Positions 9,954 to 27,839 are shown, counted from the stretch's first letter. The stretch: DNA of 64,000 nucleotides from Dehalococcoidia bacterium (GCA_965249505.1 OZ252238.1:2011273-2075272); one strand, 5' to 3'. Notes: generated from the sequence alone by a model not told the origin. Program-made: numbers and translations.

Positions 9954-12419
9954 TTGATGTTTCGACAATCCATCGCGTCAGGTACAGCCTCCAAATCTGT
10001 CGCTGTCATATTGGTTTCCGCAGCGTTGAGCGGATGGCTCCTCATTTCGTCATGTGATCTCACCAGCACGGAGTACGTGGAGGTGGAGGTCGAAGTCACT
10101 CGCGAAGTTTTCGTTGAGTCCCGACGGACCGTCGAAGTGGAAGTGACCCGTGTGGTTCCTGTTGAAGTGACTCGGATAAAGGAGGTCGTGCTGCCTTTCG
10201 GCTTCGAATCACCCACGCCGGCGCCTACCTACACGCCCACACCGACCCCGTCAGCGACTCATACGGCTACCCCGACCGTCACGCCGACACCGACACCAGA
10301 ACCGATAACGGAGATTAGCTTCGTTCCGATCGCAACAACGAAAGACTCTCCCAGTAAAGTGCAAGTCGTTTTCTCGCTGCGAAATCAGGGTGATCACGCG
10401 ATCGTGCGCGACGCTGAGGAGATTCAACGCGTCACGAAAGTATACGAGGAGGGACCGGGAACAGATGGTTTTGAAGAGATTGACTACTCCGAGACCAGTT
10501 TCTTCGTGCACACCGCGGAAAACTTCGAGTTAGAGGTCGTTTTCGTTTTGGACTTCACAAACAGCATGGCTGAAGCTACTCTGCCTGACGGTAGGAGCGG
10601 AATTGACGCCATGATCGAGGCGTTCAAGTCGTCACTGGACGTCTTGGCGAGTTCACATCGGGTAGGAGTAGTGGAGTTTCATGACAGAAACGTCGATCCC
10701 CGGGTTCTGTCACCGTTAACTACGAATCGTCCATTCGTCCAAACGCGGGTCGCCGCGTTCAATCAAAGCGACTTCGATCCAGGCTCGTCTCGCGTGTGGG
10801 ATGGTTTGACAACTGCTATTGGGTTGTTTTCGACAAGGGAGACCAATCCTCGGGGCGTCAGAGCGTTGGTATTCCTGTCGGACGGGCGGGACACGAGCAG
10901 TGTCAATAGCCGCGAGTTTGTGCTGAACCTTGCGCAACATGGCGGTGTCCAACTATATGTAATGGGTGTCGGTGAGGTTTTCCAAGAAGCCCGTCTTCGA
11001 GATATGAGTCGCCTTACGAACGGTAACTACTACCCAGCGAGAGAACCTGCCCTAGTCCAGAAGCAGCTGGAAATCATCGTCAATGACCTTAGAGGCCAGT
11101 ATCAAGTTAGCTACATCACGCTCAGAAGGGAGGGCATCTACAGAACGAAAATCAGCGCGGAACTAGACGGGATTTTGGGCGAAACCACAATTGGCAGCTT
11201 TGATGTCGGCTCGTTCTTCGGTCCTGACAACATAGGAAATTTTCAGTTCGATCCGCCATCCATCGATACCGTCAACAACCGAACTACGACTTTCTTGCGT
11301 GCGCTCCACGTACCTCGAAACATCGACCACATTCGGTTCAAGATTGGTTCTGACCTACAGGCCAATTTCGAGTTGGTCGGGCGAGAAGACGGAGGCCTAT
11401 TAGAAGATTGGGATCTCTCTGGACCAGGTGAAGACGGATTCTACGACCTCAGGGGACATGAGCCGATCGAATTTGGCAACTTCGGTTTGCTTTTTAGATT
11501 GACGATTTCAAATGTCGACGCGGCACAATCGGAGATTCCATTCGAATTCGATAACTCGATCTATTCGAGTGGAAAAAAACTTCAGATCCTTTCGAGTGAG
11601 GGTGTAGTCGGTCAACCTGCACACTCGGGCCGAATTCTCTTCACTTCTGATCGCGGCGGAGACAGAGATCTTTACATCATGGACCTCGACGGAAGTGATG
11701 TGCTGCAGCTTACCGATGATGGGAGCGATGATGTCACTCCACACTGGTCGCCCGATAGGCAGCAAGTCCTTTTCGCTTCGGATCGAGACGGTGACTACGA
11801 CCTCTACGTAATGAATCTTGACGGAACGGGGCTAGTCCAAATCACCGCCACCCAAGAAAATGAGTTTTATCCGCGATGGTCGCCCAACGGGGAACAGATC
11901 GTGTTCGTGTCTGACCTAGACGGTAATCAGGAAATTCAAGTCATAGATTCCGACGGATCAAACGGCATGTTCTTGACCGATCACCCGGATGGGGACACGT
12001 TTCCGCAATGGTCACCAGACGGGCTCCAAGTATTGTTCGCTTCGGATCGAGGCGGAGATCTCGATCTATACGTCATAAATTCCGACGGATCGGGATTGAC
12101 TCAACTGACTAATCATCCGGATCGGGATTCCTTTCCCCAATGGTCACCCGACGCGAGCCAGATAGCATTCGCTTCCAATCGTGACGGGAATCTGGAGATA
12201 TACACCATGAGTTCAGATGGGACCGCGATTGCGCGTCTCACCGAACACGAAAACTCAGACTTTTTGCCATATTGGTCTCCTGATGGCCAACAACTCGCTT
12301 TTTCGTCCAACAGAGACGGACACCACGACATCTATATGATCGATTCGAACGGCGATAACCTACGTCGCATCACTGATTATCCGGGAGATGAGATCGCTTA
12401 CGACTGGACTGGACAATAA
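9954..12419 (+). CDS. Exported multidomain protein: signal/lipobox, VEV-repeat stalk, Pro/Thr linker, vWA domain, unknown middle region, 6-bladed PD40 (TolB-type) beta-propeller
   Basis: 821-aa ORF. It has an N-terminal hydrophobic segment ending LLISSC, a stalk EYVEVEVEVTREVFVESRRTVEVEVTRVVPVEVTRIKEVV (10071..10190) and the linker PTPAPTYTPTPTPSATHTATPTVTPTPTPEP. A MIDAS-like VVFVLDFTNSM motif and VFLSDGRDT are present. Six ~44-aa repeats follow, of the form WSPDGxxIxFxSxRDGxxxIY. Confidence 0.85.
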   Translation: MMFRQSIASGTASKSVAVILVSAALSGWLLISSCDLTSTEYVEVEVEVTREVFVESRRTVEVEVTRVVPVEVTRIKEVVLPFGFESPTPAPTYTPTPTPSATHTATPTVTPTPTPEPITEISFVPIATTKDSPSKVQVVFSLRNQGDHAIVRDAEEIQRVTKVYEEGPGTDGFEEIDYSETSFFVHTAENFELEVVFVLDFTNSMAEATLPDGRSGIDAMIEAFKSSLDVLASSHRVGVVEFHDRNVDPRVLSPLTTNRPFVQTRVAAFNQSDFDPGSSRVWDGLTTAIGLFSTRETNPRGVRALVFLSDGRDTSSVNSREFVLNLAQHGGVQLYVMGVGEVFQEARLRDMSRLTNGNYYPAREPALVQKQLEIIVNDLRGQYQVSYITLRREGIYRTKISAELDGILGETTIGSFDVGSFFGPDNIGNFQFDPPSIDTVNNRTTTFLRALHVPRNIDHIRFKIGSDLQANFELVGREDGGLLEDWDLSGPGEDGFYDLRGHEPIEFGNFGLLFRLTISNVDAAQSEIPFEFDNSIYSSGKKLQILSSEGVVGQPAHSGRILFTSDRGGDRDLYIMDLDGSDVLQLTDDGSDDVTPHWSPDRQQVLFASDRDGDYDLYVMNLDGTGLVQITATQENEFYPRWSPNGEQIVFVSDLDGNQEIQVIDSDGSNGMFLTDHPDGDTFPQWSPDGLQVLFASDRGGDLDLYVINSDGSGLTQLTNHPDRDSFPQWSPDASQIAFASNRDGNLEIYTMSSDGTAIARLTEHENSDFLPYWSPDGQQLAFSSNRDGHHDIYMIDSNGDNLRRITDYPGDEIAYDWTGQ

Positions 12420-12505: not shown

Positions 12506-13837
12506 ATGAAAGTATTCGTTGTTATCGCAGTTGCTGTCGCGATTGGCGCGGTCGGCTACTTCGTCGCGAGGGATCTTCCAACAGTAGAGACGGTCGAAGT
12601 TACGAGGGAGATTGTCCGCGACGTTACCGTTCATATCGAAACAACGGTAGAGGTGGAAGTCACTCGTGAGGTTAAGTTGGAGTTCACTCGAGTGGTGGAA
12701 GTGTTCGTCACGGCCACCGCTGGACCCGCGACTTCCATTCCTGACACCCCGACGCCGGAACCAACCGAAACATCCACCTCGACTCCAACGATCATCCCGA
12801 CGCCCGAACCTACGTCAACACCGACTCCTCCGCCGCCACCAACGCCAACGGCAGCTACTCCTCCATCGCCGACGCCCGAGCCCGAACCCACACCTACGCC
12901 CGAGCCTCACGGACAGATCGTGTACATGTCCAAGTTGGATGATAGGTGGGGGATCCATGTAATGGATCTCCAACGATCGACTACGTACGGATTGACTGAC
13001 CGTGAATCCGTCGACGCATACCCCAAATGGTCTCCTGATGGGAGACGCGTGGCTTTTCACTCGAACCGGGACGGTGATTGGGAGATATACGTGATGAACG
13101 CCGACGGTTCGGGGCAGACTCGCCTTACCGATCGTACTGGCTTCGATGGCTTTCCACTCTGGTCGCCTGATGGGGAGAAGATCGTTTTTCAATCGCTATT
13201 CGAAGACAAAAACTGGGAAGCCCAAGTGGTGAATTCGGATGGCTCTGGATTGAATCTGTTGACGCAAAACGCAGACTCTGACGTGGGTTTCGTGTGGTCG
13301 CCGTCAGGAGATCGAATTGTGTTCAACTCGAACCGCAACGGTGATTTTGACGTGTATGTCGTGAATCTCGACGGCTCGGGCGAGACTCGCCTGACTGACA
13401 GTCCTGGAGACGACATCACTTATGGATGGTCGCCGAATGGAACTTGGATCGCGTTTCACTCAGAACGCGACGGCAACAACGACATATACGTCATGAATGC
13501 GAATGGTTCAGATGTTACTCGCCTGACGGACCACCCTGAAGCGGATATGGTCGCCAAGTGGTCCCCAGATGGGGAAAAGATCGCGTTCATCTCAAACAGG
13601 GATGGCGAAAGCGGTCTGTACGTCATGAATACCGACGGCACAGCAGTGACACGACTTGCCGATATTTCAGCTGACGATTCGACGTTTGTTTGGTCGCCTG
13701 ACGGTCAGTATCTGCTGTTTGGTTGGGACGGTGACGGTAACGATGATCTATACATCGTCGATGTACGTGGCTCCGAGTTGACGAAATTGACCGACAACAA
13801 CGAGGACGATGGCGCACCGGACTGGGTAGGTCGGTAG
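12506..13837 (+). CDS. Membrane-anchored PD40 (TolB-type) beta-propeller protein with VEV-repeat stalk and Pro/Thr linker
   Basis: 443-aa ORF. It has an N-terminal TM helix (VFVVIAVAVAIGAVGYFVA), a stalk TVETVEVTREIVRDVTVHIETTVEVEVTREVKLEFTRVVEVFVT (12581..12712) and a ~60-aa P/T/E-rich linker. About seven WSPDG...NRDG...IYVMN blades follow. Confidence 0.85.
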   Translation: MKVFVVIAVAVAIGAVGYFVARDLPTVETVEVTREIVRDVTVHIETTVEVEVTREVKLEFTRVVEVFVTATAGPATSIPDTPTPEPTETSTSTPTIIPTPEPTSTPTPPPPPTPTAATPPSPTPEPEPTPTPEPHGQIVYMSKLDDRWGIHVMDLQRSTTYGLTDRESVDAYPKWSPDGRRVAFHSNRDGDWEIYVMNADGSGQTRLTDRTGFDGFPLWSPDGEKIVFQSLFEDKNWEAQVVNSDGSGLNLLTQNADSDVGFVWSPSGDRIVFNSNRNGDFDVYVVNLDGSGETRLTDSPGDDITYGWSPNGTWIAFHSERDGNNDIYVMNANGSDVTRLTDHPEADMVAKWSPDGEKIAFISNRDGESGLYVMNTDGTAVTRLADISADDSTFVWSPDGQYLLFGWDGDGNDDLYIVDVRGSELTKLTDNNEDDGAPDWVGR

Positions 13838-14997: not shown

Positions 14998-16644
14998 CTA
15001 TACGCTAACCGTCGGCGAGCCCATCGGCTTGAATTGGCAGCCCTCTACGAAGAAATCGAAGAAATCCGGACTCGTCTCCAACTCGACGTGCTCGATCATC
15101 TTCACCAACTCCTCGATCGCCGAGCGTTTTCGACCAGATAACAGCATGATCGTCGCGCCGAGCAACGATGCGTTCCCTATCTTCACGATCTTCTCTAAAG
15201 GTAGATCCGGGATGAATCCGATCGAGATGGCGTTAACAGGATTGATGTAGTTGGCAAACCCACCCGCCAGATACAGCCGAGCATAGTCGCTGACCGATCG
15301 CTCCAGCGACTGAAGGACGATCTGTTGACCGCAGAAGTTCGCCGCCTTCGCCTGCGCTAACGCAGATATGTCGGCCCGCGAAAGCGTCAGCCCGTTTTCT
15401 GGATAAAACGAGAAGTGGTTCGAGCCGTCGCCGAACGCGCCCAGTTCATTCATCAGTTCTCGACGCCGAAGCTCTGCCAACAGGTCAATCAGGCCAGATC
15501 CGCAGATCCCCATCGGCTCGGCATCCCCTATCACCTTGACTTCGGGACAGTCGTCATCGTCCCGAAGGGTTAAACCTTCGATAGCGCCGTCGTAACCAGG
15601 CATGGCGTAGGCGACCGCGCCTCCCTCGAATGCAGGACCAGCAGGGCAGGAGGCAGCCATCAACCCATTTCGATTGCCGGCAACGATCTCGGTGTTGGTT
15701 CCTACATCGAGCAGGATCACGTTCTCTTCCTCTTCCTCTATTCCTACGGCGAGCAGGTCAGCAGCTACATCAGCGCCCACGTGAGATGCCACCAACGGTC
15801 CACCATAGACATTCGCTTCTGGATGTATGCGTATCCCTAACTCGTGCGCCCGAGCATTCACCGACGTAGATTCCCGTCTGCCGTCCAGATACTCGAACTC
15901 GACTGTCGACTTATATGGCTTCGTGCCGATCGACTCCACATCGAAGCCGAACAAGATGTCCCTCATCGTGGCGTTGCCGACGGCGACGAACTCGACGATC
16001 TGGCGCCGTCTGATCTTCAACGTCTTCACCATCTCGCCGATCTCGAAGTTGATGCTCGAAACTAACACTGCTTGCAGCTCGCCCGCGTACTCGCCCATGT
16101 CGTAGCTGATGCGGTGCATGATGTCGGAGCCGCCGAATCGCTGAGGATTCTCAAACGAGGCGACGTAGATAACTTCCCCGCTCTCGAGATCGACAAGATT
16201 CATGGCGACGGTAGTGGTACCGATGTCCGCCGCGATCCCCAGCATTCGGCCTCGATATCGGTCGATGACGCGGCCGTCGTTGTTGCCCTTGAATACGACC
16301 TCGTCACCTTCTCGGACGGTGACAGGGTCAAACTCGAACTCGTGCTCGATCGTCTCGGTAAGTATGCGAGGTTGCCGCCTCAAGACATTGAACTCGACCT
16401 CGGCGTCCGGATCGGTGATCGCCGCTTGGCAAGCTAGGCGGTACTCGCCTCGTAAGAACCGTTCAGAGTCAGTGAGGGGACTCAGAGTCGATAGTCCTCT
16501 GCGCACCTCGACGATGCATTCGTGACATTCACCCGTACGTCCGCAGGATGTGGGCACGCGCAGAGCAAGATCGTCTGCGTAGTCGAAGAGGGATTTGCCG
16601 GTTTCTAGCGGGAGACTCTGCCCGCCGTGGATCAGTGGGCTCAT
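14998..16644 (-). CDS. RACo/RamA-type reductive activase of corrinoid enzymes ([2Fe-2S] ferredoxin domain + ASKHA ATPase, DUF4445)
   Basis: 548-aa ORF with N-terminal SCGRTGECHEC...LACQA (Cx5Cx2C...C). The ASKHA phosphate-1 motif is GIAADIGTTTVAMNLVDL, with a later LLDVGTNTEIV. Size and order match ATP-dependent corrinoid activases. Confidence 0.8.
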   Translation of the reverse strand: MSPLIHGGQSLPLETGKSLFDYADDLALRVPTSCGRTGECHECIVEVRRGLSTLSPLTDSERFLRGEYRLACQAAITDPDAEVEFNVLRRQPRILTETIEHEFEFDPVTVREGDEVVFKGNNDGRVIDRYRGRMLGIAADIGTTTVAMNLVDLESGEVIYVASFENPQRFGGSDIMHRISYDMGEYAGELQAVLVSSINFEIGEMVKTLKIRRRQIVEFVAVGNATMRDILFGFDVESIGTKPYKSTVEFEYLDGRRESTSVNARAHELGIRIHPEANVYGGPLVASHVGADVAADLLAVGIEEEEENVILLDVGTNTEIVAGNRNGLMAASCPAGPAFEGGAVAYAMPGYDGAIEGLTLRDDDDCPEVKVIGDAEPMGICGSGLIDLLAELRRRELMNELGAFGDGSNHFSFYPENGLTLSRADISALAQAKAANFCGQQIVLQSLERSVSDYARLYLAGGFANYINPVNAISIGFIPDLPLEKIVKIGNASLLGATIMLLSGRKRSAIEELVKMIEHVELETSPDFFDFFVEGCQFKPMGSPTVSV

Positions 16645-16699
16645 GGCAAGCCGGCGAACAACGTTGCGGTTTGAAATCTAGCCCAACCGGCTGACGAAT

Positions 16700-16975
16700 T
16701 CAATTCAGCGGGTCGACTTCCCACGCCGATCTGTAGTCGAGACCATCGGCCGCGGTGCAGATGGGCTTTTCGGCTGGATTCTCGGTGAAGTGTTGGTTGC
16801 GACATCCGAACTTCGCGGTGCATCGCGTCTTTGCATCTTTATACGGACACCGGTTGAGCATCGACTTCTCGGCATTTTCCGCGATGTCCTTATAGATGCC
16901 TTGAAGCCGCACAATGCTTCTGCGCGCGGCACCGACGTCTAGCTGATGCGATCGCTCTTGTCCATTGTGGTTCAC
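16700..16975 (-). CDS. Small Cys-containing hypothetical protein (91 aa) between the corrinoid protein and the activase
   Basis: This is the only one of four overlapping ORFs here with protein-like composition. It carries four Cys (NRCPYKDAKTRCTAKFGCRNQHF...PICTA). It begins 15 nt after the upstream gene and ends 56 nt before the downstream gene. I recognise no family. Confidence 0.4.
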   Translation of the reverse strand: MNHNGQERSHQLDVGAARRSIVRLQGIYKDIAENAEKSMLNRCPYKDAKTRCTAKFGCRNQHFTENPAEKPICTAADGLDYRSAWEVDPLN

Positions 16976-16989
16976 AGAACCAGAGGCCC

Positions 16990-17733
16990 CTAGCCCAGCT
17001 GCTTCCTAAGTTCAAGCATCCCATGGGCGGTCTCGACGCAATCGACGGCATTCTCGCCGTAGCCATCGGCACCCATCTCGTCTGCGAACTCTCGGGTAAC
17101 TGGCGCTCCTCCAACCATAATCCTCACTTCGTCTCGCAATCCAACATCCTCAAAATATGTGATGGTCCTACCCATGTTGGGCATCGTAGTCGTCAGCAGA
17201 GCGGACATGCCCATCACTTGAGCGCCATGTTCAACCACGGCGTCTGCGAACTCTTCGGGAGACGTATCGACACCGAGGTCATGGACCACGAAACCGGCGC
17301 CGCGCAGCATCATGATGCACAGGTTTTTGCCGATGTCGTGAAGGTCGCCCTTCACTGTGCCCATAATCACAATGCCTACCGGCTCGATTCCAGATGCTGA
17401 GAGGATCGGCTCGATGTGCGCCATTCCAGCCTTCATCGCCCGCGCGGCCACCAGTACCTCAGGCACGAATATGACGTTATCGCGGAACTTCACCCCAACT
17501 ATCGCCATTCCGTTCAACAAACCGTTGTCGAGGATGTGATTCGCCGTGTAGCCGTTGCCGAGAGCCTCTTTGGTGAGGCGGTCGACTTCGAGGTTGTTGC
17601 CGACGATCAATTGGTACGCCATCTCTTGCATCAGGGCGTCGGCTACGTCCAGCGCTTCGCCGATGTGCTTCTGCTCACCAGGTCGAGTGACCCACTCGAA
17701 CTCCTTGGCTAACCCTTCATTGACTATCGGCAT
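16990..17733 (-). CDS. Methyltransferase cognate corrinoid protein (B12-binding cap + Rossmann B12-binding domain)
   Basis: 247-aa ORF carrying the full cobalamin signature: DxHxxG (GDLHDIGKN), SxL (MSALLTTT) and GG (MVGGAP). The N-terminal helical cap domain is typical of MtaC/MtbC/MetH-type modules. Confidence 0.9.
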   Translation of the reverse strand: MPIVNEGLAKEFEWVTRPGEQKHIGEALDVADALMQEMAYQLIVGNNLEVDRLTKEALGNGYTANHILDNGLLNGMAIVGVKFRDNVIFVPEVLVAARAMKAGMAHIEPILSASGIEPVGIVIMGTVKGDLHDIGKNLCIMMLRGAGFVVHDLGVDTSPEEFADAVVEHGAQVMGMSALLTTTMPNMGRTITYFEDVGLRDEVRIMVGGAPVTREFADEMGADGYGENAVDCVETAHGMLELRKQLG

Positions 17734-17855
17734 TTGATCGTGTTTTCCGGGTGTTCGAAGAGAGTTTTATTGATTGAAAAGCGACTAATTTAAGCAAACG
17801 AGCGCAAATCTCAATTTTACAACTCGATACTCACGTCGTTCTGTGTTGAACCCGG

Positions 17856-18932
17856 TCAATTGACACCGTTAATTCGGTTGGGCGTGTAGTCCCAGTGCTC
17901 GGCAGCCCAGTCTTCAGCAGCTTTCGGCATCTCAAGCAGGTTTTCCAATTTCGTCTTGAGCGGGATGGCGCACTCAGGCGCTATCAACTGAACACCTGCA
18001 TCCAATGCACGCGTCACCTCGGCACGGACATCTTCTGGACCCTTCGAGTAGAGCGTTACCGGGTTGTTGATGTTGCCGACCAGCCTGATGCCATCGCCTA
18101 CAGCCTCCATCGACTCGGCCGGATCGTTCTTCGAATCGAAGTGGAAAGCCGATAGACCGGTCTGAGCTATGTAGGGCATTCGGTCGACCGTGGCCCCGCA
18201 TATATGAAGAATCAACGGAACCGGGAGCTCATCGATGAGCCCTTCGTGCAGCTCCATCAGGAAGCGCTTGTAGTATTCGCCACTCACCAAGTCGCCAGTC
18301 GCGTGGTCCGGCAGCGTCAACGCATCGGCACCGGCCTCTATCTGAGCCTGGCCGAACGCGATCGTGAACACCTTCAGCTTCTCAAGCATCTTCATCACAG
18401 CGCCAGGATCGTCGATCGTCTCCAACAGGAACGGCTCGACACCAAAGACGTGGTACGCGAGTGTCCACGGGCCCATCGTCTTACCGATGATCGCTACCTC
18501 GTCACCGAACTCCTGCTTGAGAATCCGAATCGACTCGATAATCGTCCAATTGTCCGGATGAGTAAGGAAGTTTTCCGGCATCTTCACGTCGTCCGCTGAC
18601 TTCCAGATCGGTTTCAACATCCTGACAGTAGGCCAGTTGTCTTTGCCCTCCCATTGCATCTCACAACCCAGCGCCGAAGACTCTTGGATGATTGTGAAGT
18701 AGGGCATTATGGCATCGAAGCCCAGCTGCGTGTACCCGGTGGCCGCAAGGCGAGCGTTCATCTCAGGGTCACGGTTGGCGTCCGGAAACGGTGCTTCAAC
18801 GAGGTCCATCAACTCCACCGTCGCCACATTGGTCGGGTTCGCAACCGGTGGACGATCCACCGGCTCGCCGGCCAACGCCCGCATCACCCGTTCTTTGGAT
18901 GTAAGTGTGCCGTTGTATTTATTGGAAGGCAT
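17856..18932 (-). CDS. URO-D-fold, MtaA/MtbA/CmuA-type Zn methyltransferase
   Basis: 358-aa ORF. The N-terminus is RVMRALAGEPVDRPPV, the MtaA type, not the HemE PxWxMRQAGR motif. Putative Zn ligands HxC (LILHICGAT) and a downstream Cys (IAPECAIP) are present. Confidence 0.75.
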   Translation of the reverse strand: MPSNKYNGTLTSKERVMRALAGEPVDRPPVANPTNVATVELMDLVEAPFPDANRDPEMNARLAATGYTQLGFDAIMPYFTIIQESSALGCEMQWEGKDNWPTVRMLKPIWKSADDVKMPENFLTHPDNWTIIESIRILKQEFGDEVAIIGKTMGPWTLAYHVFGVEPFLLETIDDPGAVMKMLEKLKVFTIAFGQAQIEAGADALTLPDHATGDLVSGEYYKRFLMELHEGLIDELPVPLILHICGATVDRMPYIAQTGLSAFHFDSKNDPAESMEAVGDGIRLVGNINNPVTLYSKGPEDVRAEVTRALDAGVQLIAPECAIPLKTKLENLLEMPKAAEDWAAEHWDYTPNRINGVN

Positions 18933-18983
18933 CTCTCCCTCCCTCTCGCCCTTGTTTGGACGCTTTGCCGATCATCGATCGGA

Positions 18984-19595
18984 TTACACGGATTGTGAAA
19001 AACCTAAGGTCTGCGTAGTCATCTGGCCCGCCAGTTCACTCGCCGCCAGCATGTCGTCGACTGCGCTCACGTTGCGGGCGTAGGACAGAAGTAGACGTGC
19101 GAAGCGGTCCAACCGTTCTCCACCCTTGAATCGGAAACGATCCCACTCAAGTCGCTCACAATCGCCATAGCGCATGTAGCCACCAACCACCGCTCGGATG
19201 CGCATCTCAGGCCGATCGAACTCGCCTTCAGCCGAAACCACGTAGATCCATCCTTCGTCGCCAGTATCCTCAGGTGTGACCGTGAACGTCAGTCGCGACT
19301 TTGTATCTCGGATCGAGATGGGGCCTTCGGGAATTGGATTGTTTCTTTCCACGGCCTCGGTAAAAGCGAACTTAAGGGCACGGTCATAGAGTTCGGATGA
19401 CATCACCTCCGCCTGGTTGTACGTACCTTCAACCGCATCAACGTCCGCCAGTCTGCACAACCGTTCTCTGATCGTCTCGATCCGTTCTTCACGACCCTCT
19501 GCTAGAGAAAACGTCCAGATCGTCAAAATGCGCTCTTTCAGGAAGAGCCCAACCGTGATGTCTTTGAAGTGTGGGTCGGCAGCAACCAACTCCAC
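18984..19595 (-). CDS. Hypothetical protein (203 aa), no family recognised
   Basis: Clean ORF on the operon strand between the two methyltransferase genes. Composition is protein-like, with no TM segment or signal peptide. Confidence 0.6.
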   Translation of the reverse strand: MELVAADPHFKDITVGLFLKERILTIWTFSLAEGREERIETIRERLCRLADVDAVEGTYNQAEVMSSELYDRALKFAFTEAVERNNPIPEGPISIRDTKSRLTFTVTPEDTGDEGWIYVVSAEGEFDRPEMRIRAVVGGYMRYGDCERLEWDRFRFKGGERLDRFARLLLSYARNVSAVDDMLAASELAGQMTTQTLGFSQSV

Positions 19596-19707
19596 GCAGC
19601 GACCCAGCGAGTGCAGAGGGCTTGCAATGACGTTATCGCGAACTATTCCGCTTGAGTAAGAAACTGTTACTGCCTCTGCAATTCAGATGATCTGTGCTCG
19701 TGAAGGT

Positions 19708-20604
19708 TCACTTAACCGCTTCTGCCAACTGCCGTATGTGTTCCGGTGTCGTGCCGCAGCACCCGCCCAAGATGTTGACCGGAATCTCAGCCAAAAGCTT
19801 ATAGCGCTCAACCATATACTCAGGCGTCTCCGGATAAATGATCTCACCGGCTTTATAAACGGGTATGCCCGCATTCGATTGGATGACCAGATACTTGTCG
19901 GTCACATCCCGCATCGCGGTCGCGATCTCGACCATCTTGTCGATGCCATTTCCACAGTTGGAGCCGACTACATCAGCACCCGCAGCCTCGAGGCCTTCAA
20001 CGGCTTGCTCGGGAGATGTGCCCCACATGGTAAAGAACCCTCTTGGCCCTTTGTCAAACACCATAGTCGACATCACAACCAGGTCGGTATTATCGCGAGC
20101 CGCCTTGATAGCGATCTGCGCCTCATCCAACACCATCTGAGTCTCGATCATCACAGCATCCGCTCCGCCGGCCTCCAAAGCAGTTATCTGCTCGGCAAAG
20201 CTGTCGTACATCGCGCTCTCGCTCAGCAACCCAAGTGGTTCAATGAACTCACCGGTCGGCCCCACCGATCCTGCGACGAATTGACCAGGTCCAGCCTGTG
20301 ACTTTGCGTGCTCAGCTGCCAACTCGTTGAGTTCGGTAACCCGATCGGCCGCGTCGTAGTGCTGCAACCTGTGCTTCGTGCCGCCGAACGAATTCGTCAG
20401 CACAATGTCCGATCCGGCATCGAAATATGCCTTCGCCTTGCCCCGGATCACTTCAGGCGCATCAGCATTCATCAGCTCAGGGCACCCCCCAGGCTCCAAA
20501 CCGTGCTGCTGCAGATATGTGCCCGTCGCACCGTCGAAAATCAGCTGCTCAGTCTCGAGGCGCCGAAGTATCTCATGCTTAGTTACGGTTGTGCTCTCTG
20601 TCAT
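19708..20604 (-). CDS. Homocysteine S-methyltransferase domain protein (stand-alone MetH/BHMT-type Hcy-binding module)
   Basis: 298-aa ORF with LIFDGATGTYLQ and TNSFGG. The Zn-thiolate triad positions are VGSNCGNG and ILGGCCGTTPEHI. Its length covers only the Hcy barrel. Confidence 0.85.
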   Translation of the reverse strand: MTESTTVTKHEILRRLETEQLIFDGATGTYLQQHGLEPGGCPELMNADAPEVIRGKAKAYFDAGSDIVLTNSFGGTKHRLQHYDAADRVTELNELAAEHAKSQAGPGQFVAGSVGPTGEFIEPLGLLSESAMYDSFAEQITALEAGGADAVMIETQMVLDEAQIAIKAARDNTDLVVMSTMVFDKGPRGFFTMWGTSPEQAVEGLEAAGADVVGSNCGNGIDKMVEIATAMRDVTDKYLVIQSNAGIPVYKAGEIIYPETPEYMVERYKLLAEIPVNILGGCCGTTPEHIRQLAEAVK

Positions 20605-20608
20605 GTGC

Positions 20609-20950
20609 TTATTTTATCCACCCATCGATCGCGCCTGGACTCTCGTCACGGTCACCCGCATTGTGCAAATCTCGTATTCGAGCCACAAAATCGCCAGGCA
20701 TTCCCTGGTTTATCCGGTCCGCACTTGCCTGAGCAGCTCCATCGGCGTCGAATTCGCTATCGATGTGATCACCCCACTGCCAAGCGTCGAGATACGCATC
20801 GGACCCGTACGATCCGTCGAACATAGCGATTGCATCCGCAGCCTCTTGGAAGCGGTGATCCAGCGGAACCGACATCTTGCCGTTCCCGTCTTCTGCTTCA
20901 ACCTGAACGGGTATCTCTTTCCAGTAAAGAATTCGGAATACGGAAGGCAT
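20609..20950 (-). CDS. Small conserved-looking hypothetical protein (113 aa), first gene of the operon
   Basis: It starts FRILYWKEIPVQVEAEDGNG..VPLDHRFQEAADAIAM...SDAYLDAWQWG. I believe this resembles the short 'virulence factor' Pfam family that co-occurs with B12-binding and S-methyltransferase modules, but I cannot verify that here. Its stop lies 4 nt before the Hcy-methyltransferase start. Confidence 0.5.
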   Translation of the reverse strand: MPSVFRILYWKEIPVQVEAEDGNGKMSVPLDHRFQEAADAIAMFDGSYGSDAYLDAWQWGDHIDSEFDADGAAQASADRINQGMPGDFVARIRDLHNAGDRDESPGAIDGWIK

Positions 20951-21139: not shown

Positions 21140-23446
21140 GTGCTCGAACGAGCATGTAGGGGCGTGTACGCGGTTTTACGTTTGCCTGCCCCGAATTCGG
21201 AGAAGTATGGCCATGAGCAATACGCTCCGAAAACGAAGAATGTCAAGTACGCATGGAGGTGTGTGTTGATATCACTAACTAGCAGGAAATGGCTCCTCGC
21301 CGGTGCCATGGCCGTAGCCGCAGCGGCGGTTTGGGCGTGTGGTGGCGAGACGGTTATCCAAACCGTCGAAGTCGTCAGAGAAGTCCAAGTCCAGGGCGAG
21401 ACGGTTATCCAAACCGTCGAGGTCGAGAAGGTGGTTGAGGTGGAGAAGCAGGTGGTTTCGACCGTCGTGGTTGAGAGGGAAGTCCAAGTCGCAGGCGAAA
21501 CCGTCGTTCAGACCGTCGTCGTCGAGAAGGAAGTCCAAATAGCAGGCGAGACTGTCGTCCAGACTGTCGTCGTCGAGAGGGAAGTCGAAGTCGCAGGCGA
21601 GACCGTCGTTCAGACTGTCGTCGTCGAGAAGATCGTTGAAGTCGCTCCCGCGACCGCAACTGCCGCTCCGATCCTTACCGGCACGATCGGCGCTCCGGAT
21701 CCCAAGACAGAAGCCGGCGTTGCCGTCCTCGGATTTGCAGAGATCGGCCGCGAAAACGGCAGAAACGCCAACCAGGCGAGCGATGCGCTCAAGAACTACG
21801 GTGTAGCCGAAACGTTGTTCCGACGTGGACCGTCAGATGAGACTGTTCCGTGGGTAGCCACCTCGTGGACGATATCCGACGACCTCACCACTGGCAGCGT
21901 AACCATTCAAGACGGCATCGAATTCCGCACCAAGGACAAGTCTTACGGCCCACTGACGGCCGAAGACGTTGCTTGGAGCATGAACGACTCCAACAACGCC
22001 GTCAACCCGACATCGATCCATGGCCAAGCAGGTGACTTTGCTGGTCTGTGGGGCGAGTGGATCGCCGTTGACGAGTCGACTGTCGAGTGGCAATTCGCCA
22101 TCAAGGCAGACGGCACTCCAGCGTTCGATGGAACCTGGAAAGACGACTACGTCAACCAGTCCGGCCAGGCATTCGGGGTCCTCTCAAAGGCCGCTTTCGA
22201 GCAAGAGGGTGCTGACTTTGTTTCTGCGACCATCGTCGCAAGCGGTGTGTATCTCGTCGACGAATGGATAAGCGATGACCGAATTGTCCTGATCGAAGAC
22301 CCAAACCACTGGAACTTCGACGCAAAGACGTCAACCGTCATGTTGGTGCAAGCAGGCGACCCGACTAACCGAGCGACATTGCTTCGCACAGGTCAGATCG
22401 ATACCGCTCAATTGGAGCCGAAAGACGCTGCTGAGTTGATCGTTGACTCGAGCAACTGGGGCCAGTCTGGCACCGGCGGCGCAGTCCAACTCGGAGTGTT
22501 CTTCTCTGGCAACCTCTGGGAAACAACGGACGCCAAGACAGGCGATCCCTTGCCACCCAAAGGCCCGTTTGTCCACGACCACGCATGGATCGGCAACTCT
22601 GACAGTGCAAGTCACGGCGCAGACGACATGGAGCAGGCCCGAAACGTTCGCTATGCAATGGCTATCGCGATAGACCGAGCTGCTGTCAACGAAGCACTCC
22701 TCGCAGGACTCGGCAACGTGGTCCAAATCGAGTACTTTGCAGCGGGGCACCCCAACTACGGTCAAGTCCAGTGCACTCAGGAGGGCGGCGCAGCATTCAC
22801 CGATGAAGCGCCTTCTGGAACCGGACCATGCACTTACGCTTATGACCCAGTTCAAGCCGTTCAAATATTGAAGGCCCAAGATCCTGACTGGCGAAAAACT
22901 AACGTCCAGTCGGACATCCTGGGCGACCACAGATTCGAAGTCTCGGTCTATGCCGGACCAGAACTCGGCGGCGGCGCATCTGTTACTGGACAGGTGGCAG
23001 ACGCAGTTGCCGGTTACTGGGCAGACATCGGACTCTCGACCTTCTCACTCAAGTTCACATACGTGACGTTCCGACCCACAGTTGTGAACCGAGCAAACGT
23101 GCACCCGTGGATCACCTCGTGTGACAAGGGTCGAGAATCGAACCCGTGGCACTTCCCCAAGGGTCTTGTACAGACGTCCCTGACCCGCGGTGGTTTCGCA
23201 TGCGGATTTGAATCGCCGAAGATTCTGGAGCTTTACCAGGGTATGGCGACCGCAGCTGACACCGCAGAGGCAACTGACTTCGCGAACCGTTACCTGCAAT
23301 ACGTCTACTACTGGAACTTGCAGCCAGGTGTCGTAGCAGTCCCGCAGGACTGGTTCTGGAACCGCAACAAGATCGCCGCCTGGCCTCAGGACCGAGCGGC
23401 TGCCAGCGGCATCAACAACCTCTGGGACATCGAACTCTCCCAGTAA
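21140..23446 (+). CDS. ABC transporter substrate-binding protein, family 5 (peptide/nickel/opine type), with an N-terminal repeat stalk
   Basis: 768-aa maximal ORF. The likely start is GTG/TTG at 21263-21266, just after GGAGG (21256..21260), giving a signal peptide that ends AAVWAC. About 100 aa of GETVxQTVxVEKEV repeats follow, then an SBP_bac_5-like body (WVATSWTISDD, IVLIEDPNHW). Confidence 0.8.
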   Translation: MLERACRGVYAVLRLPAPNSEKYGHEQYAPKTKNVKYAWRCVLISLTSRKWLLAGAMAVAAAAVWACGGETVIQTVEVVREVQVQGETVIQTVEVEKVVEVEKQVVSTVVVEREVQVAGETVVQTVVVEKEVQIAGETVVQTVVVEREVEVAGETVVQTVVVEKIVEVAPATATAAPILTGTIGAPDPKTEAGVAVLGFAEIGRENGRNANQASDALKNYGVAETLFRRGPSDETVPWVATSWTISDDLTTGSVTIQDGIEFRTKDKSYGPLTAEDVAWSMNDSNNAVNPTSIHGQAGDFAGLWGEWIAVDESTVEWQFAIKADGTPAFDGTWKDDYVNQSGQAFGVLSKAAFEQEGADFVSATIVASGVYLVDEWISDDRIVLIEDPNHWNFDAKTSTVMLVQAGDPTNRATLLRTGQIDTAQLEPKDAAELIVDSSNWGQSGTGGAVQLGVFFSGNLWETTDAKTGDPLPPKGPFVHDHAWIGNSDSASHGADDMEQARNVRYAMAIAIDRAAVNEALLAGLGNVVQIEYFAAGHPNYGQVQCTQEGGAAFTDEAPSGTGPCTYAYDPVQAVQILKAQDPDWRKTNVQSDILGDHRFEVSVYAGPELGGGASVTGQVADAVAGYWADIGLSTFSLKFTYVTFRPTVVNRANVHPWITSCDKGRESNPWHFPKGLVQTSLTRGGFACGFESPKILELYQGMATAADTAEATDFANRYLQYVYYWNLQPGVVAVPQDWFWNRNKIAAWPQDRAAASGINNLWDIELSQ
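21344..21646 (+). repeat. In-frame 51-bp (17-codon) tandem repeat encoding the SBP stalk
   Basis: Units begin with ggcga(g/a)ac at 21344, 21395, 21494, 21545 and 21596. The last three are contiguous exact-length 51-nt units. The second unit is expanded to ~99 nt. Confidence 0.9.
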
Positions 23447-23464
23447 CAAGGCACTGAGTTTGAA

Positions 23465-23500
23465 CCCGCCGACGCGCCGTTTCCGCGGCGCGTCGGCGGG
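23465..23500 (+). terminator. Strong GC-rich hairpin between the SBP gene and the permease genes (intra-operon attenuator or terminator)
   Basis: cccgccgacgcgccg-tttccg-cggcgcgtcggcggg forms a 15-bp perfect stem 19 nt after the SBP stop. It is flanked on both sides by gagtttga. There is only a weak T-tract. Confidence 0.6.
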
Positions 23501-23652
23501 AGTTTGATCGTCAGGTGTTAGCTCTGGACATCGGTTATCCGATGTCACTTGCTCAACGACGTGCTCTCAAGGGGCGTGCCATTGGACAGCGCGTCTCCGG
23601 CATCGCAAGGATGCCGCTATAATTCCCTTCGTCATCAATTGACGGTTCTGTC

Positions 23653-24588
23653 ATGAGACGATTCCTCATACGAAGATTCTTCTTCGCCATTATCAGCACC
23701 CTCGCCGCCACGGCCATGGTTTTCGCTCTTTCGCGAGCCGGTGGCGATCCGCTGCTTTTGTTCGCCACATCGGGTTACGGATTGACTGAAGAAGCTGTCG
23801 AAGCAGTCCGAAAAGAGCTCGGGTTGGATAAGTCTTACCCGGTGCAGTACATCAGCTGGATAAGTCGGATTGTGAGAGGGGATTTCGGCAAAACCCTCAT
23901 CTTCAGAGATTCGGTTGCTAAGGTGATCGTGGACAAAATCCCGGAGAGCCTACAACTCGGTGCGCTCGCTTGGTTCTTCACGACATTCATAGGTGTGCCA
24001 CTAGGAGTTCTATCGGCCGTTAAGCGTGGAACAATGCAGGACTACTTCGGGCGATTCGTGGCACTAATCGGACAGTCCGTGCCAGTGTTTTGGTTCGGGA
24101 TTGTTCTAATCATGGTGTTCGCCGTTTATCTTGACTGGTTGCCGGCCGGCCGAATCGGCAAATCATTGTGGGACATGAAATATCTCGTCCTGCCCGTGAT
24201 CGCCATGACCGCTGGAGGATTGGCGGGATACCTGCGCCTTACGCGGTCGGCAATGCTAGAAGTGCTCGATTCGGAGTACGTCAAACTTGCTCGAGCGAAG
24301 GGTGTTTCATCGGCGGAGCTCATATGGAAACACGCATTCCGAAATGCTCTTATTCAACCATTGACTGCCTCGACGTTGGTCTTCGCCGGATTCATCGAAG
24401 GCGCACTCGTCGTCGAAACCGTCTTCTCACGACCCGGTATCGGCTCTGAGGCAATCCAAGCCGTCAACAATAAAGACTTTCCTCTGTTACAAGGCTTGGT
24501 ATTGATGTTCATACTCGTATATGTCATCGCAACATTCATCACCGATGTTCTTTACGCAGTGATCGACCCTCGTATTCGTTACGACTGA
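23653..24588 (+). CDS. ABC transporter permease (DppB/OppB-like)
   Basis: 311-aa ORF. The N-terminal RRFFFAIISTL... and the EAA-type loop region YVKLARAKGVS..IWKHAFRNA are typical of the BPD_transp_1 family. Confidence 0.9.
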   Translation: MRRFLIRRFFFAIISTLAATAMVFALSRAGGDPLLLFATSGYGLTEEAVEAVRKELGLDKSYPVQYISWISRIVRGDFGKTLIFRDSVAKVIVDKIPESLQLGALAWFFTTFIGVPLGVLSAVKRGTMQDYFGRFVALIGQSVPVFWFGIVLIMVFAVYLDWLPAGRIGKSLWDMKYLVLPVIAMTAGGLAGYLRLTRSAMLEVLDSEYVKLARAKGVSSAELIWKHAFRNALIQPLTASTLVFAGFIEGALVVETVFSRPGIGSEAIQAVNNKDFPLLQGLVLMFILVYVIATFITDVLYAVIDPRIRYD

Positions 24589-24622
24589 TCATTTTTCGAG
24601 CAGTGCAGCACAGATAACACTG

Positions 24623-26693: not shown

Positions 26694-26730
26694 ACTCTCA
26701 GCCAACCCAACAGCGATTCTTTGCCATGAG

Positions 26731-27807: not shown

Positions 27808-27839
27808 CCTCGTTTTCAACTACACAAAGGCACACAGTC

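Follow-up and report, generated by a model that had tools for sequence, protein, structure and literature searches.

Positions 14998–20950 of the 64-kb stretch of DNA analyzed here (the window) carry what is, judged by its sequence, a real and strongly conserved seven-gene operon for vitamin B12-type methyl transfer; the host is a SAR202-like bacterium of the Chloroflexota. Taken as a whole, the locus is best explained, with a confidence only a little above even, as a system that would strip a methyl group from a small molecule and load it onto homocysteine to give methionine. Comparison with related loci further suggests that it is the homocysteine-acceptor variant of a widespread demethylase cassette, with a fixed core and an interchangeable acceptor module. 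This cassette family, with either homocysteine or folate as final acceptor, is apparently undescribed so far. The working hypothesis of the first-pass annotation, in which the methyl group passes from a donor through a methyl-corrinoid to homocysteine, is therefore kept as the best reading, while its description of the system as a “non-folate” version of methionine synthase (MetH) is revised.

Seven conserved genes and their predicted functions

By checking the ORFs of the window, we found seven intact and tightly spaced minus-strand ORFs (g1 to g7, the third product being called G3) in the interval and at the coordinates where the first-pass annotation had placed them, and Pfam and NCBIfam profile searches returned the domains that it had named. 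Across 80 species-level Chloroflexota genomes, practically all loci that are not truncated show the seven-gene order, with G3 identities of 47–85%; neighbourhood conservation was one of the checks proposed in the first-pass annotation. A profile search also revealed, in other phyla including Proteobacteria, Acidobacteria and Poribacteria, a sister family of G3 that comprises at least 1216 clusters, and every untruncated sister locus keeps the order G3–URO-D–corrinoid protein–small Cys protein–RACo. Chance adjacency, or a decayed remnant without a functional system, is hardly credible: the order is kept in 80 Chloroflexota species and beyond this phylum, catalytic ligands are invariant, frames are intact and spacing is tight, all of which already contradicts it. 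Family membership, ligands and comparative context suggest that the locus encodes a complete four-function corrinoid methyl-transfer system with a first methyltransferase (MT1), a carrier, a second methyltransferase (MT2) and an activase.

The product of g4 (17856–18932, minus strand) is a Zn methyltransferase of the MtaA/CmuA family with a URO-D fold (URO-D E = 1.5e-68). It scores 256.8 bits against TIGR01463, which describes the MtaA/CmuA family (cut-off 235.4), and remains below the equivalog cut-offs of MtaA (230 vs 400 bits) and MtbA (219 vs 600 bits). Its top PDB match is MtaA (4ay7, 172 bits), and its HxC...C zinc motif (LHICG, PECAIP) is invariant in orthologues. Identity with HemE was ruled out, with 78 bits against the hemE model TIGR01464 (cut-off 303) and at most 62 bits for UroD entries in the PDB, so that the earlier placement of this protein with the MtaA type rather than with HemE holds. 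Parsimony and context favour g4 as MT1, transferring the methyl group from the donor to Co(I), over a role as MT2. What counts against this choice is that MtaA, the nearest relative with a characterised function, is a thiol-methylating MT2; the TIGR01463 family also includes MT1 enzymes, namely CmuA, and MtsA as MT1/MT2 (PMC8630106).

The signature subunit of this cassette is G3, which we infer to be a partner subunit of MT1. All of its homologues, at least 131, come from Chloroflexota, and its gene always lies directly upstream of the URO-D gene. Profile searches gave no Pfam and no NCBIfam match for it, and its AF2 model (pLDDT 89.5) matched no PDB fold at E ≤ 1e-3. Assignment to DUF1638 was rejected (hhalign probability 0.2). 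The canonical ORF, starting at a GTG, spans 18984–19595 (minus strand), which corresponds to the 203 aa given in the first-pass annotation. However, the conserved N-terminus (GIVRDNVIASPLHSLGRC) is encoded in frame 5' of this GTG, where there is no canonical start, so that the true protein is probably about 232 aa long and begins upstream; an ATT at 19682 is a possible start, giving a span of 18984–19682 on the minus strand. In the first step of the proposed pathway, g4, probably together with G3, would move a methyl group from an imported small molecule onto the Co(I) of g5.

The carrier g5 (16990–17733, minus strand) combines a B12-binding_2 cap (PF02607) with a Rossmann B12-binding domain (PF02310), and its DxHxxG (GDLHDIGKN), SxL (SALLTT) and GG (MVGGAP) motifs are invariant in orthologues. 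The nearest NCBIfam models are MtgC (193 bits) and MtbC (176 bits), both below cut-off. The stand-alone MetH-type homocysteine Zn-methyltransferase g2 (19708–20604, minus strand) matches PF02574 at E = 1e-63, and its zinc ligands C217 (NCG), C282 and C283 (GGCCGT) are invariant among 78 orthologues, in agreement with the stand-alone homocysteine-binding enzyme with Cys ligands recognized in the first pass. Among solved structures, g2 is closest to the homocysteine domains of MetH (1q7m, 166 bits, vs 54 bits for BHMT), and its top NCBIfam model is the bacterial “BHMT” PRK07534 (255 bits, below the cut-off of 338). Family membership and ligand conservation thus point to g2 as the MT2 that, in the second step, would turn Zn-activated homocysteine into methionine with the methyl group of methyl-Co(III).

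Finally, g7 (14998–16644, minus strand) resembles the ATP-dependent reductive activases of the RACo/RamA type, with Fer2, RACo_middle and RACo_C_ter domains in a [2Fe-2S] plus ASKHA architecture and with a four-Cys motif and ASKHA motifs that are invariant in orthologues. It scores 327 bits against the AcsV model and 104 bits against the RamA model, both under cut-off, and a domain search detected no RACo_linker domain in it. Two small genes probably assist this activase. First, g1 (113 aa; 20609–20950, minus strand) belongs to PF13769 (“Virulence_fact”, Pfam E = 3e-13) and is found in 75 of the 80 Chloroflexota loci. In S. meliloti, a PF13769 gene heads an operon for MTHFR, a methyl-THF:cobalamin methyltransferase and an ASKHA protein, and 18 sister loci have PF13769 together with the acceptor methyltransferase. 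Second, g6 (91 aa with four invariant Cys; 16700–16975, minus strand) matches no Pfam or other family; all the same its sequence conservation marks it as a real gene, since it occurs in 71/80 Chloroflexota loci, with the motif RCPYK..S.CTA.F.C..Q.F...P.C...D...YR.AW, and in every untruncated sister cassette. The two proteins are read as activase accessories, with g6 as a putative metal-binding one, because both occur joined to RACo in other loci: Terrarubrum has a PF13769 domain at the N-terminal end of Fer2-RACo, and in locus L061 g6 and RACo share one reading frame with no intervening stop. The presence of both genes had been noted before, but as independent curiosities, which the fusions make them no longer. 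In the third step, cofactor oxidised to Co(II) would be re-reduced by g7 with ATP, helped by g1 and g6.

Flanking genes and candidate substrates

A gene for a D-2-hydroxyacid dehydrogenase (PF02826 and PF00389; 13964–14950, minus strand) lies 47 nt downstream of the operon, and its family is a recurrent companion, adjoining the cassette in 33 Chloroflexota and 13 sister loci. On the other side, divergent genes for an SBP_bac_5 binding protein and two ABC permeases (21140–25678, plus strand, Pfam) occupy the same position in 37–42 of the 80 Chloroflexota loci. NCBIfam gave these transporter genes no specific assignment; they are a candidate system for substrate uptake. They are followed by genes for a HIBADH/tartronate-semialdehyde-reductase-like dehydrogenase and a tartrate dehydrogenase (25827–27807, plus strand; TIGR02089 489.9 bits, cut-off 470.4), families found in 48 and 34 Chloroflexota loci, respectively, and co-conserved with the transporter. 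Neighbours are heterogeneous across loci, comprising 2-hydroxyacid dehydrogenases, GntR/FCD regulators, sugar-acid dehydrogenases and the SBP5 transporter, none of them decisive for the substrate. The same is true of sulfur-flavoured neighbours seen in some loci, that is a D-cysteine-desulfhydrase/CuyA-like PLP lyase and a weakly MtnK-like kinase.

Acceptor modules, folate and the direction of methyl flow

The first-pass annotation had reported that the operon lacks both the pterin module and the AdoMet-activation module of MetH. Indeed, none of the seven proteins matched PF00809 (pterin binding) or PF02965 (AdoMet activation) at E ≤ 0.01, and tblastn of the 64-kb window with the in-operon pterin protein of relatives found no pterin gene (E > 3). 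Likewise, PF00809 was not found in the ~8-kb flanks of 74/80 Chloroflexota loci. Nevertheless, the absence of folate is no property of the system as such, since six Chloroflexota loci and one SAR202 genome carry a PF00809 gene between g4 and g5, and methyl-THF could therefore be the donor here too. The locus might then be an ordinary split methionine synthase made of g2, g5 and g7 and fed from methyl-THF by a pterin methyltransferase whose gene lies in another part of the genome, with g3 and g4 as an add-on giving g5 a second function, as in MtgBCDE. We consider this unlikely, although it deserves to be taken seriously: in both P. inhibens and R. pomeroyi, the gene for the pterin module is not linked to those for the homocysteine and B12 modules (PMC5764234, PMC12478193), a 346-aa stand-alone pterin family is widespread (794 matches, SAR202 included), and two sister loci have both acceptor modules. 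Against it stand the negative searches of operon, window and flanks, and the observation that g3 and g4 are no less universal than g2 and g5 in the operon, as expected of core components and not of an add-on. Also, the best 120 of the 794 pterin-family matches include none from the 2,582,857-bp contig on which the G3 of the window lies, which is weak evidence.

The sister cassettes argue for methyl transfer from a small-molecule donor to an exchangeable acceptor. Of the 31 sister loci that could be evaluated, 13 have Pterin_bind as acceptor module, 15 have PF02574 and 2 have both; in the remaining one no acceptor module was seen. The proteins of the window are 64–68% (g4), 60–65% (g5) and 54–57% (g7) identical to sister proteins, pterin-type and homocysteine-type alike, which argues for one common donor-side function with the acceptor swapped. 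The earlier picture of a MetH in which a URO-D protein replaces the pterin barrel thus has matters backwards, as the core is invariant in sister loci and the acceptor module is what changes. Furthermore, MTHFR (11 loci) and PurU (8 loci; 319 bits, cut-off 286) occur near pterin-type sister loci, a signature of methyl oxidation after demethylation. Since a near-identical URO-D protein feeds tetrahydrofolate in these sister cassettes beside MTHFR/PurU, an activated methyl donor, such as a hydroxy- or sugar-acid methyl ether, an onium compound or a halide, is more plausible on thermodynamic grounds than a simple thioether. For the homocysteine-only variant, a methylthio donor of the methionine-salvage type is possible.

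Methyl flow might also run in reverse, with g4 acting like MtaA to methylate a thiol or selenol from methyl-corrinoid and the methyl group coming from methionine (g2 working backwards) or, in pterin-type cassettes, from methyl-THF; the outcome would be a methyl-thioether or the demethylation of methionine. The characterised proteins nearest g4 are methylcobamide:CoM methyltransferases, methyl exchange between thioethers and thiols is near equilibrium with MtsA working both ways (PMC8630106), and folate-free clusters with several MtaA-like proteins have been proposed to shuttle methyl groups among sulfur and selenium compounds (PMC10418091); the CuyA-like enzyme and MtnK-like kinase near some loci would fit as well. 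We nonetheless regard reverse flow as quite improbable. First, MetH-type homocysteine domains are only known to work in the direction of methionine formation. Second, the usual methyl donor of the cell is AdoMet, not methionine. Third, MTHFR and PurU beside pterin-type sister cassettes fit methyl oxidation rather than supply, and reverse flow would leave a homocysteine-only cassette with two acceptors or an unprecedented donor.

Comparison with known systems

The proposed formation of methionine by way of g4, g5 and g2 has partial parallels in several known systems. As in canonical MetH, a PF02574 barrel with a three-Cys Zn site (here on g2) is found together with a B12 cap and a B12-binding domain with DxHxxG (here on the separate g5); unlike in MetH, the modules are separate genes, and the operon has no PF00809 barrel and no PF02965 domain. 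Closer are the split systems of Roseobacters. Phaeobacter inhibens makes methionine with separate homocysteine, B12 and RamA-like modules (Price 2018, PMC5764234), and MtgBCDE of Ruegeria pomeroyi, a dual glycine-betaine demethylase/methionine synthase, places an MT1 and a homocysteine methyltransferase on one corrinoid protein (Mausz 2025, PMC12478193). Shared features are a separate PF02574 enzyme (the top NCBIfam model of g2 being of the same bacterial “BHMT”/MtgE type), a separate corrinoid protein, a RamA/RACo-type activase instead of an AdoMet activation domain and, as we infer for the window, a corrinoid protein common to a substrate-specific MT1 and a methionine-forming MT2; PF13769 also occurs in the related S. 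meliloti operon. However, the predicted MT1 here is an MtaA/CmuA protein of the URO-D fold with G3, whereas MtgBCDE uses the MttB-family MtgB, and no operon protein matched PF06253 of that family. No linked pterin methyltransferase (MtgD) exists within the 64-kb window, and a four-Cys 91-aa protein stands where the Roseobacter systems have DUF1638 (PF07796), which no operon protein matched. Here, moreover, every part lies in one operon, in a Chloroflexota host.

Type 1 mlp clusters, reported only from obligate anaerobes (PMC10418091), are hypothesised to act in methyl-sulfur/selenium metabolism or methionine salvage (Kountz & Balskus 2023 preprint, PMC10418091). Like the operon, they combine a corrinoid protein with a Ram/RACE activase and have no tetrahydrofolate methyltransferase in the cluster. 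Unlike it, they lack a PF02574 enzyme and need two or more different MtaA-like proteins (Mlp2, Mlp3); positions 14998–20950 hold a single URO-D gene and a MetH-type homocysteine methyltransferase. The text of PMC10418091 mentions no homocysteine methyltransferase, no Chloroflexota and no type 2 cluster. The combination of two thiol-type Zn methyltransferases with a single carrier, called unusual in the first-pass annotation, has a partial precedent in these folate-free clusters.

The methylotrophic MtaABC, MtsA and CmuAB systems (PMC8630106) share the three-component logic and the ATP-dependent activase, as well as a g4-like enzyme (TIGR01463, HxC...C) and a carrier of the kind to which g5 is nearest (MtgC/MtbC-type). 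They differ in their acceptor, which is coenzyme M or tetrahydrofolate and not the homocysteine predicted here, and in having no counterpart of the extra conserved partner G3; in addition, g4 falls under the equivalog cut-offs of both MtaA and MtbA and, unlike CmuA, carries no fused corrinoid domain. Among activases of the RACo/RamA type, g7 has the usual [2Fe-2S] ferredoxin, RACo middle and ASKHA C-terminal domains. Finally, core-MetE of Dehalococcoides and MesA-D (PMC7005905, PMC7857596) offer a conceptual precedent for folate-independent methionine from methyl-corrinoid, including one in the class Dehalococcoidia. These are MetE-related enzymes, whereas g2 is a PF02574 (MetH/BHMT-type) barrel, and the window, unlike those systems, encodes the corrinoid carrier next to g2, together with the proteins predicted to load and reactivate it.

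The seven-gene operon and its conservation

By searching the products of the seven minus-strand ORFs at window positions 14998-20950, which are separated by spacers of 4 to 122 nt, with Pfam and NCBIfam models, we found a match for every domain named in the first-pass annotation. From the 5' end, g1 (20609-20950, 113 aa) belongs to PF13769, g2 (19708-20604, 298 aa) to the PF02574 homocysteine methyltransferases and g4 (17856-18932, 358 aa) to the URO-D fold, while g5 (16990-17733, 247 aa) combines a B12 cap with a B12-binding domain and g7 (14998-16644, 548 aa) carries Fer2, RACo_middle and RACo_C_ter. Both g3 (18984-19595, 203 aa from its canonical start) and g6 (16700-16975, 91 aa) fall into no family. 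Among solved structures, g2 is best matched by the homocysteine domains of MetH (1q7m, 166 bits, against 54 bits for BHMT) and g4 by MtaA (4ay7, 172 bits, against at most 62 bits for UroD). The first-pass annotation had also asked whether the URO-D protein could be a true HemE; with 78 bits against a hemE cut-off of 303, and 256.8 bits for the MtaA/CmuA model TIGR01463 (cut-off 235.4), we rejected this identity. A CmuA-like enzyme was discarded as well, given that tblastn against plasmids, which could have caught a plasmid-borne cmuA, returned matches of at most 28% identity. In alignments of 49-78 orthologues, the putative ligands and motifs are invariant: C217, C282 and C283 of g2, LHICG and PECAIP of g4, GDLHDIGKN, SALLTT and MVGGAP of g5, and the four ferredoxin cysteines and ASKHA motifs of g7.

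Scanning one genome per species, we found a relative of G3 (the g3 protein) in 269 genomes and compared the best 80 of these loci, all from Chloroflexota MAGs, which in many cases are complete chromosomes. With the window proteins as tblastn queries, the order g1-g2-g3-g4-g5-g6-g7 was kept in essentially all of the 80 loci not cut by a contig end, which answers in the affirmative the question of neighbourhood conservation raised by the first-pass annotation. Presence among the 80 ranged from 78 for g2, 77 for g4 and 75 for g1 to 72 for g5, 71 for g6 and 62 for g7. Since both its position and its presence (71/80) are conserved, the 91-aa ORF g6 is a real gene; its product is marked by four invariant cysteines in the motif RCPYK..S.CTA.F.C..Q.F...P.C...D...YR.AW.

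In relatives, the operon is repeatedly split by unrelated genes (L018, L031, L052, L067-L080 and other loci), inserted in the g3/g4, g4/g5 and g6/g7 gaps and leaving the seven genes themselves intact. These insertions encode Fic/DOC, DUF4268, PIN/DUF3368 and restriction-modification proteins, a 1527-aa reverse-strand ORF, a LuxR-like regulator and surface proteins. Of these, the Fic, DUF4268, PIN and restriction-modification genes are in our judgement either mobile or engaged in defence and lie outside the system, and the intergenic gaps of the operon appear to be insertion hot spots. L016 and L024 also carry, between g4 and g5 on the reverse strand, a divergent second PF02574 paralogue (364 aa, 24-28% identity to g2).

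The start of g3 deserves a comment. A conserved N-terminus (GIVRDNVIASPLHSLGRC), in agreement with the N-termini of homologues, lies in frame at 19596-19682 on the minus strand, and the first canonical start, a GTG at 19595, is located 3' of these codons. Between the stop at 19683-19685 and 19595 we found no ATG, GTG or TTG. From this reading frame, translation probably begins at a codon outside the canonical set, for example the ATT at 19682, and would yield a product of about 232 aa. A promoter and terminator scan gave a result no better than chance.

G3 and the putative small activase partners

At least 131 close homologues of G3 exist, none of them named and all from sources labelled Chloroflexota, Dehalococcoidia or SAR202. 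The AF2 model of G3 (pLDDT 89.5, pTM 0.82) suggests, by the order of its secondary structures, that this protein of about 200 aa is a duplicated beta-beta-beta-alpha-beta-beta-alpha unit; model and alignment together place a long helix and then a disordered invariant tail, GQMTTQTLGF, in the C-terminal part. Foldseek against the PDB yielded no neighbour, as we counted the best hit (Arp2/3 p34, E 9e-3, TM 0.2) as no match. G3 could in principle hide a pterin-binding module, but it has no Pfam match and its predicted fold is not a TIM barrel; DUF1638 was also rejected (hhalign probability 0.2). A G3 profile searched against 1.84 billion representative proteins retrieved only 238 clusters, including a second group of 208-225-aa proteins at 60-130 bits. 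This sister family comprises at least 1216 clusters, all "hypothetical" and free of Pfam domains, with Alphaproteobacteria, Poribacteria and Bryobacteraceae among the names of their sources. It is characterized by two F.CG..H motifs and a distinct conserved tail, RGVL.APSAQ. The CG..H motifs are retained in deep-branching Chloroflexota G3 proteins but lost in the clade of the window.

We place g1 and g6 with the activase because of three observations. First, on S. meliloti pSymB a PF13769 gene is the first of an operon encoding MTHFR, a methyl-THF:cobalamin methyltransferase and an ASKHA (RACo) protein, adjoining an MttB-family gene, a cobalamin-binding protein and DUF1638. Second, a Terrarubrum flagellatum plasmid (NZ_CP091854.1; L081:8986-11268) encodes a 760-aa fusion of PF13769 with Fer2, RACo_linker, RACo_middle and RACo_C_ter; a B12-binding protein and DUF1638 are encoded alongside it. 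Third, in a Dehalococcoidia MAG (CBDBCK010000028.1; from L061:10640 onward) a g6-like four-Cys protein and RACo share a single uninterrupted frame, a natural fusion tying the small protein to the activase. In this setting PF13769 is in no real sense a virulence factor, and its Pfam name "virulence factor" would seem to mislabel an accessory domain of corrinoid activases. As a possible counterpart of g6 we considered a 112-aa hypothetical protein encoded upstream of the activase in S. meliloti, which shows no similarity to g6.

An interchangeable acceptor module

The seven operon proteins gave no match to PF00809 (pterin binding) or PF02965 (MetH activation) at E <= 0.01, and about 50 kb of the remaining window contains no MetH, MetE, MTHFR or pterin protein. 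In 6 of the 80 loci (L067, L069, L076, L077, L079 and L080), a 347-aa PF00809 protein (Pfam E 5e-21; 203 bits with the methyl-THF:corrinoid methyltransferase model PRK07535) is encoded between g4 and g5 on the same strand; used as a tblastn query, it found nothing in the window (E > 3). This pterin family has 794 matches, and none of the best 120 comes from the contig carrying the window's G3, in a database of uneven genome coverage. In the SAR202 genome L173 the order is PF13769, PF02574, G3, URO-D, URO-D, Pterin_bind, corrinoid protein, small protein, PF02574-MTHFR fusion and RACo. This locus (GCA_026421125.1; 5716-7910 and 10406-12301) combines two tandem URO-D paralogues with an in-operon pterin methyltransferase, and its 631-aa PF02574-MTHFR fusion exists besides a stand-alone homocysteine methyltransferase. 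The folate module is therefore missing at the window locus, yet part of the wider system.

The loci of the sister family in other phyla are uniform in order: G3-like gene, URO-D, corrinoid protein, an 80-110-aa g6-like protein, RACo and then the acceptor module, which a PF13769 gene often adjoins. Among 31 evaluable sister loci, the acceptor was Pterin_bind in 13, PF02574 in 15, both in 2 and none seen in 1. Identity of the window proteins to sister loci of either acceptor type is 64-68% for g4, 60-65% for g5, 54-57% for g7, 37-40% for g6, 33-40% for g1 and 24-28% for G3. For g2 it is 29-42%, a range suggestive of repeated recruitment of homocysteine methyltransferases. Companions of the sister loci include a divergent GntR/FCD regulator (33 loci), a 2-hydroxyacid dehydrogenase (13), MTHFR (11), PurU (8; 319 bits, cut-off 286) and a weakly MtnK-like APH-family kinase (58 bits; 8 loci and L087-L089). 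With the acceptor interchangeable and PF00809 present in operons of relatives, the "MetH without folate" framing of the first-pass annotation has to be replaced: from gene content, the window locus is better read as one form, with homocysteine as acceptor, of a G3/URO-D cassette for corrinoid demethylation that is widespread and has apparently not been described. This cassette includes two new protein families, G3 and the four-Cys mini-protein, and is hosted by Chloroflexota/SAR202, Proteobacteria, Acidobacteria and Poribacteria, in lineages that are commonly considered aerobic or microaerobic. In the open-access and bioRxiv literature searched, we found no description of G3, the four-Cys protein or the cassette, no papers on PF13769 or on MtaA, homocysteine S-methyltransferase and corrinoid protein combined, and nothing relevant on SAR202 corrinoids.

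Candidate methyl donors, proposed mechanism and known systems

The working hypothesis of the first-pass annotation, methyl transfer from a non-folate donor through a methyl-corrinoid to homocysteine, survives with the domain set, the conserved ligands and the operon conservation in its support. We infer that g4, with G3, acts as MT1, loading the methyl onto Co(I)-g5; g2 would then be the MT2 yielding methionine, while g7, g1 and g6 would reactivate Co(II). Several arguments favour g4 as MT1. The TIGR01463 family includes MT1 enzymes, namely CmuA and MtsA (PMC8630106). In the genetically proven precedent MtgBCDE, the Roseobacter split-MetH and glycine-betaine demethylase, a single corrinoid protein works with an MT1 as well as with a pterin and a homocysteine methyltransferase (PMC12478193). 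Moreover, operons of this type usually encode a complete system, and with g4 as MT1 this one would too. Finally, pterin-type sister cassettes with MTHFR and PurU, whose URO-D protein is about 67% identical to g4, make sense only as a route from substrate to corrinoid protein, tetrahydrofolate and oxidation.

Methyl transfer from methyl-H4MPT to CoM, forming methyl-CoM, proceeds with about -30 kJ/mol, and MetH is analogous; a plain thioether should therefore be a poor methyl donor to tetrahydrofolate. If donor specificity is common across the cassette, the donor is more likely an ether, an onium compound or a halide. In homocysteine-only cassettes a methylthio compound is possible, following the methionine-salvage logic proposed for mlp clusters (PMC10418091).

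Gene context gives further hints. A divergent SBP_bac_5 protein and two ABC permeases lie 5' of the operon in 37-42 of the 80 loci, and a 2-hydroxyacid dehydrogenase gene 3' of it in many. A HIBADH-like dehydrogenase (48 Chloroflexota loci) and a tartrate dehydrogenase (34) both co-occur with the SBP_bac_5 transporter. In the window, the permease genes are followed at 25827-28856 on the plus strand by those for a tartronate-semialdehyde-reductase/HIBADH-like dehydrogenase, a tartrate dehydrogenase that exceeds the TIGR02089 cut-off, and an aldo/keto reductase; no ABC ATPase gene adjoins them. The APH-family kinase gene is directly upstream of the G3-like gene in L087 (8001-9008), where it overlaps the G3-like start, and in 8 soil-metagenome loci (e.g. 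L107:5834-6850). It resembles only one specific family, S-methyl-5-thioribose kinase, and that weakly (55-58 bits against a cut-off of 275); this may hint at a sugar or methylthio-sugar as substrate. Other neighbours in relatives are xylose-isomerase-like barrels, GntR/FCD regulators, MIOX with an IolD-like gene (L092), an M19 dipeptidase (L072 and L091) and a CuyA/D-Cys-desulfhydrase-like enzyme (10 loci). Because of this transporter, these dehydrogenases and the other neighbours, the context points loosely, and not decisively, to a methyl donor that is transported: a polar hydroxy acid or sugar acid, or else a thio-sugar.

Elsewhere in the window, the roughly 50 kb scanned holds housekeeping genes for glycolysis and for the synthesis of purines and lysine. 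An 880-aa ORF at 1983-4625 (minus strand) has no Pfam match at E <= 1e-6. Three predicted exported proteins (9954-12419, 12506-13837 and 21140-23446, all on the plus strand) share V/E/T-rich N-terminal repeats (VEVEVTREV..., ETVVQTVVVEKEVQ...), a low-complexity region placed after a signal or anchor segment. The first two have PD40/TolB-like beta-propeller repeats and the third is the SBP5 binding protein; an inserted ORF of L004 has repeats of the same kind. This region may be a lineage-specific cell-surface tether.

It is conceivable, if somewhat short of probable, that G3 and the four-Cys mini-protein, both bound to an MtaA-like enzyme, define a large cassette family demethylating an environmental compound outside the known range of corrinoid enzymes; aliphatic O-methyl sugars or hydroxy acids, methylthio-sugars and methyl halides would be examples. 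The methyl would go to folate or, in the lineage of the window, to homocysteine, amounting to folate-independent, B12-dependent methionine synthesis from scavenged methyl in abundant ocean bacteria; within the same tentative reading, the 2Cys/2His motif of G3 would be ancestral. If the methyl-transfer model proposed above is correct, abundant marine and sponge-associated Chloroflexota (SAR202-type) would put scavenged methyl on homocysteine via a corrinoid protein, bypassing methyl-folate, and these lineages would have one more B12-dependent process. G3 with the MtaA-like enzyme would be a new substrate-side module of a widespread demethylation, folate and homocysteine acceptors of corrinoid systems would be exchanged as cassettes, and both the misnamed PF13769 and the new four-Cys protein would gain a likely role as activase accessories. 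The seven genes would also be a tractable set for reconstitution.

The nearest known systems are split MetH and MtgBCDE, the folate-free mlp clusters of anaerobes, MtaABC, MtsA and CmuAB and, conceptually, the core methionine synthases. Unlike canonical MetH, the locus has neither a pterin nor an activation domain and is not one polypeptide. Compared to MtgBCDE, it lacks an MttB-family MT1, DUF1638 and a linked MtgD, and in contrast to type 1 mlp clusters it has a single Mlp only. By all three tests, g4 falls outside the MtaA, MtbA and HemE equivalogs. As a general class, the locus fits the three-component corrinoid methyltransferase systems with an ATP-dependent activase.
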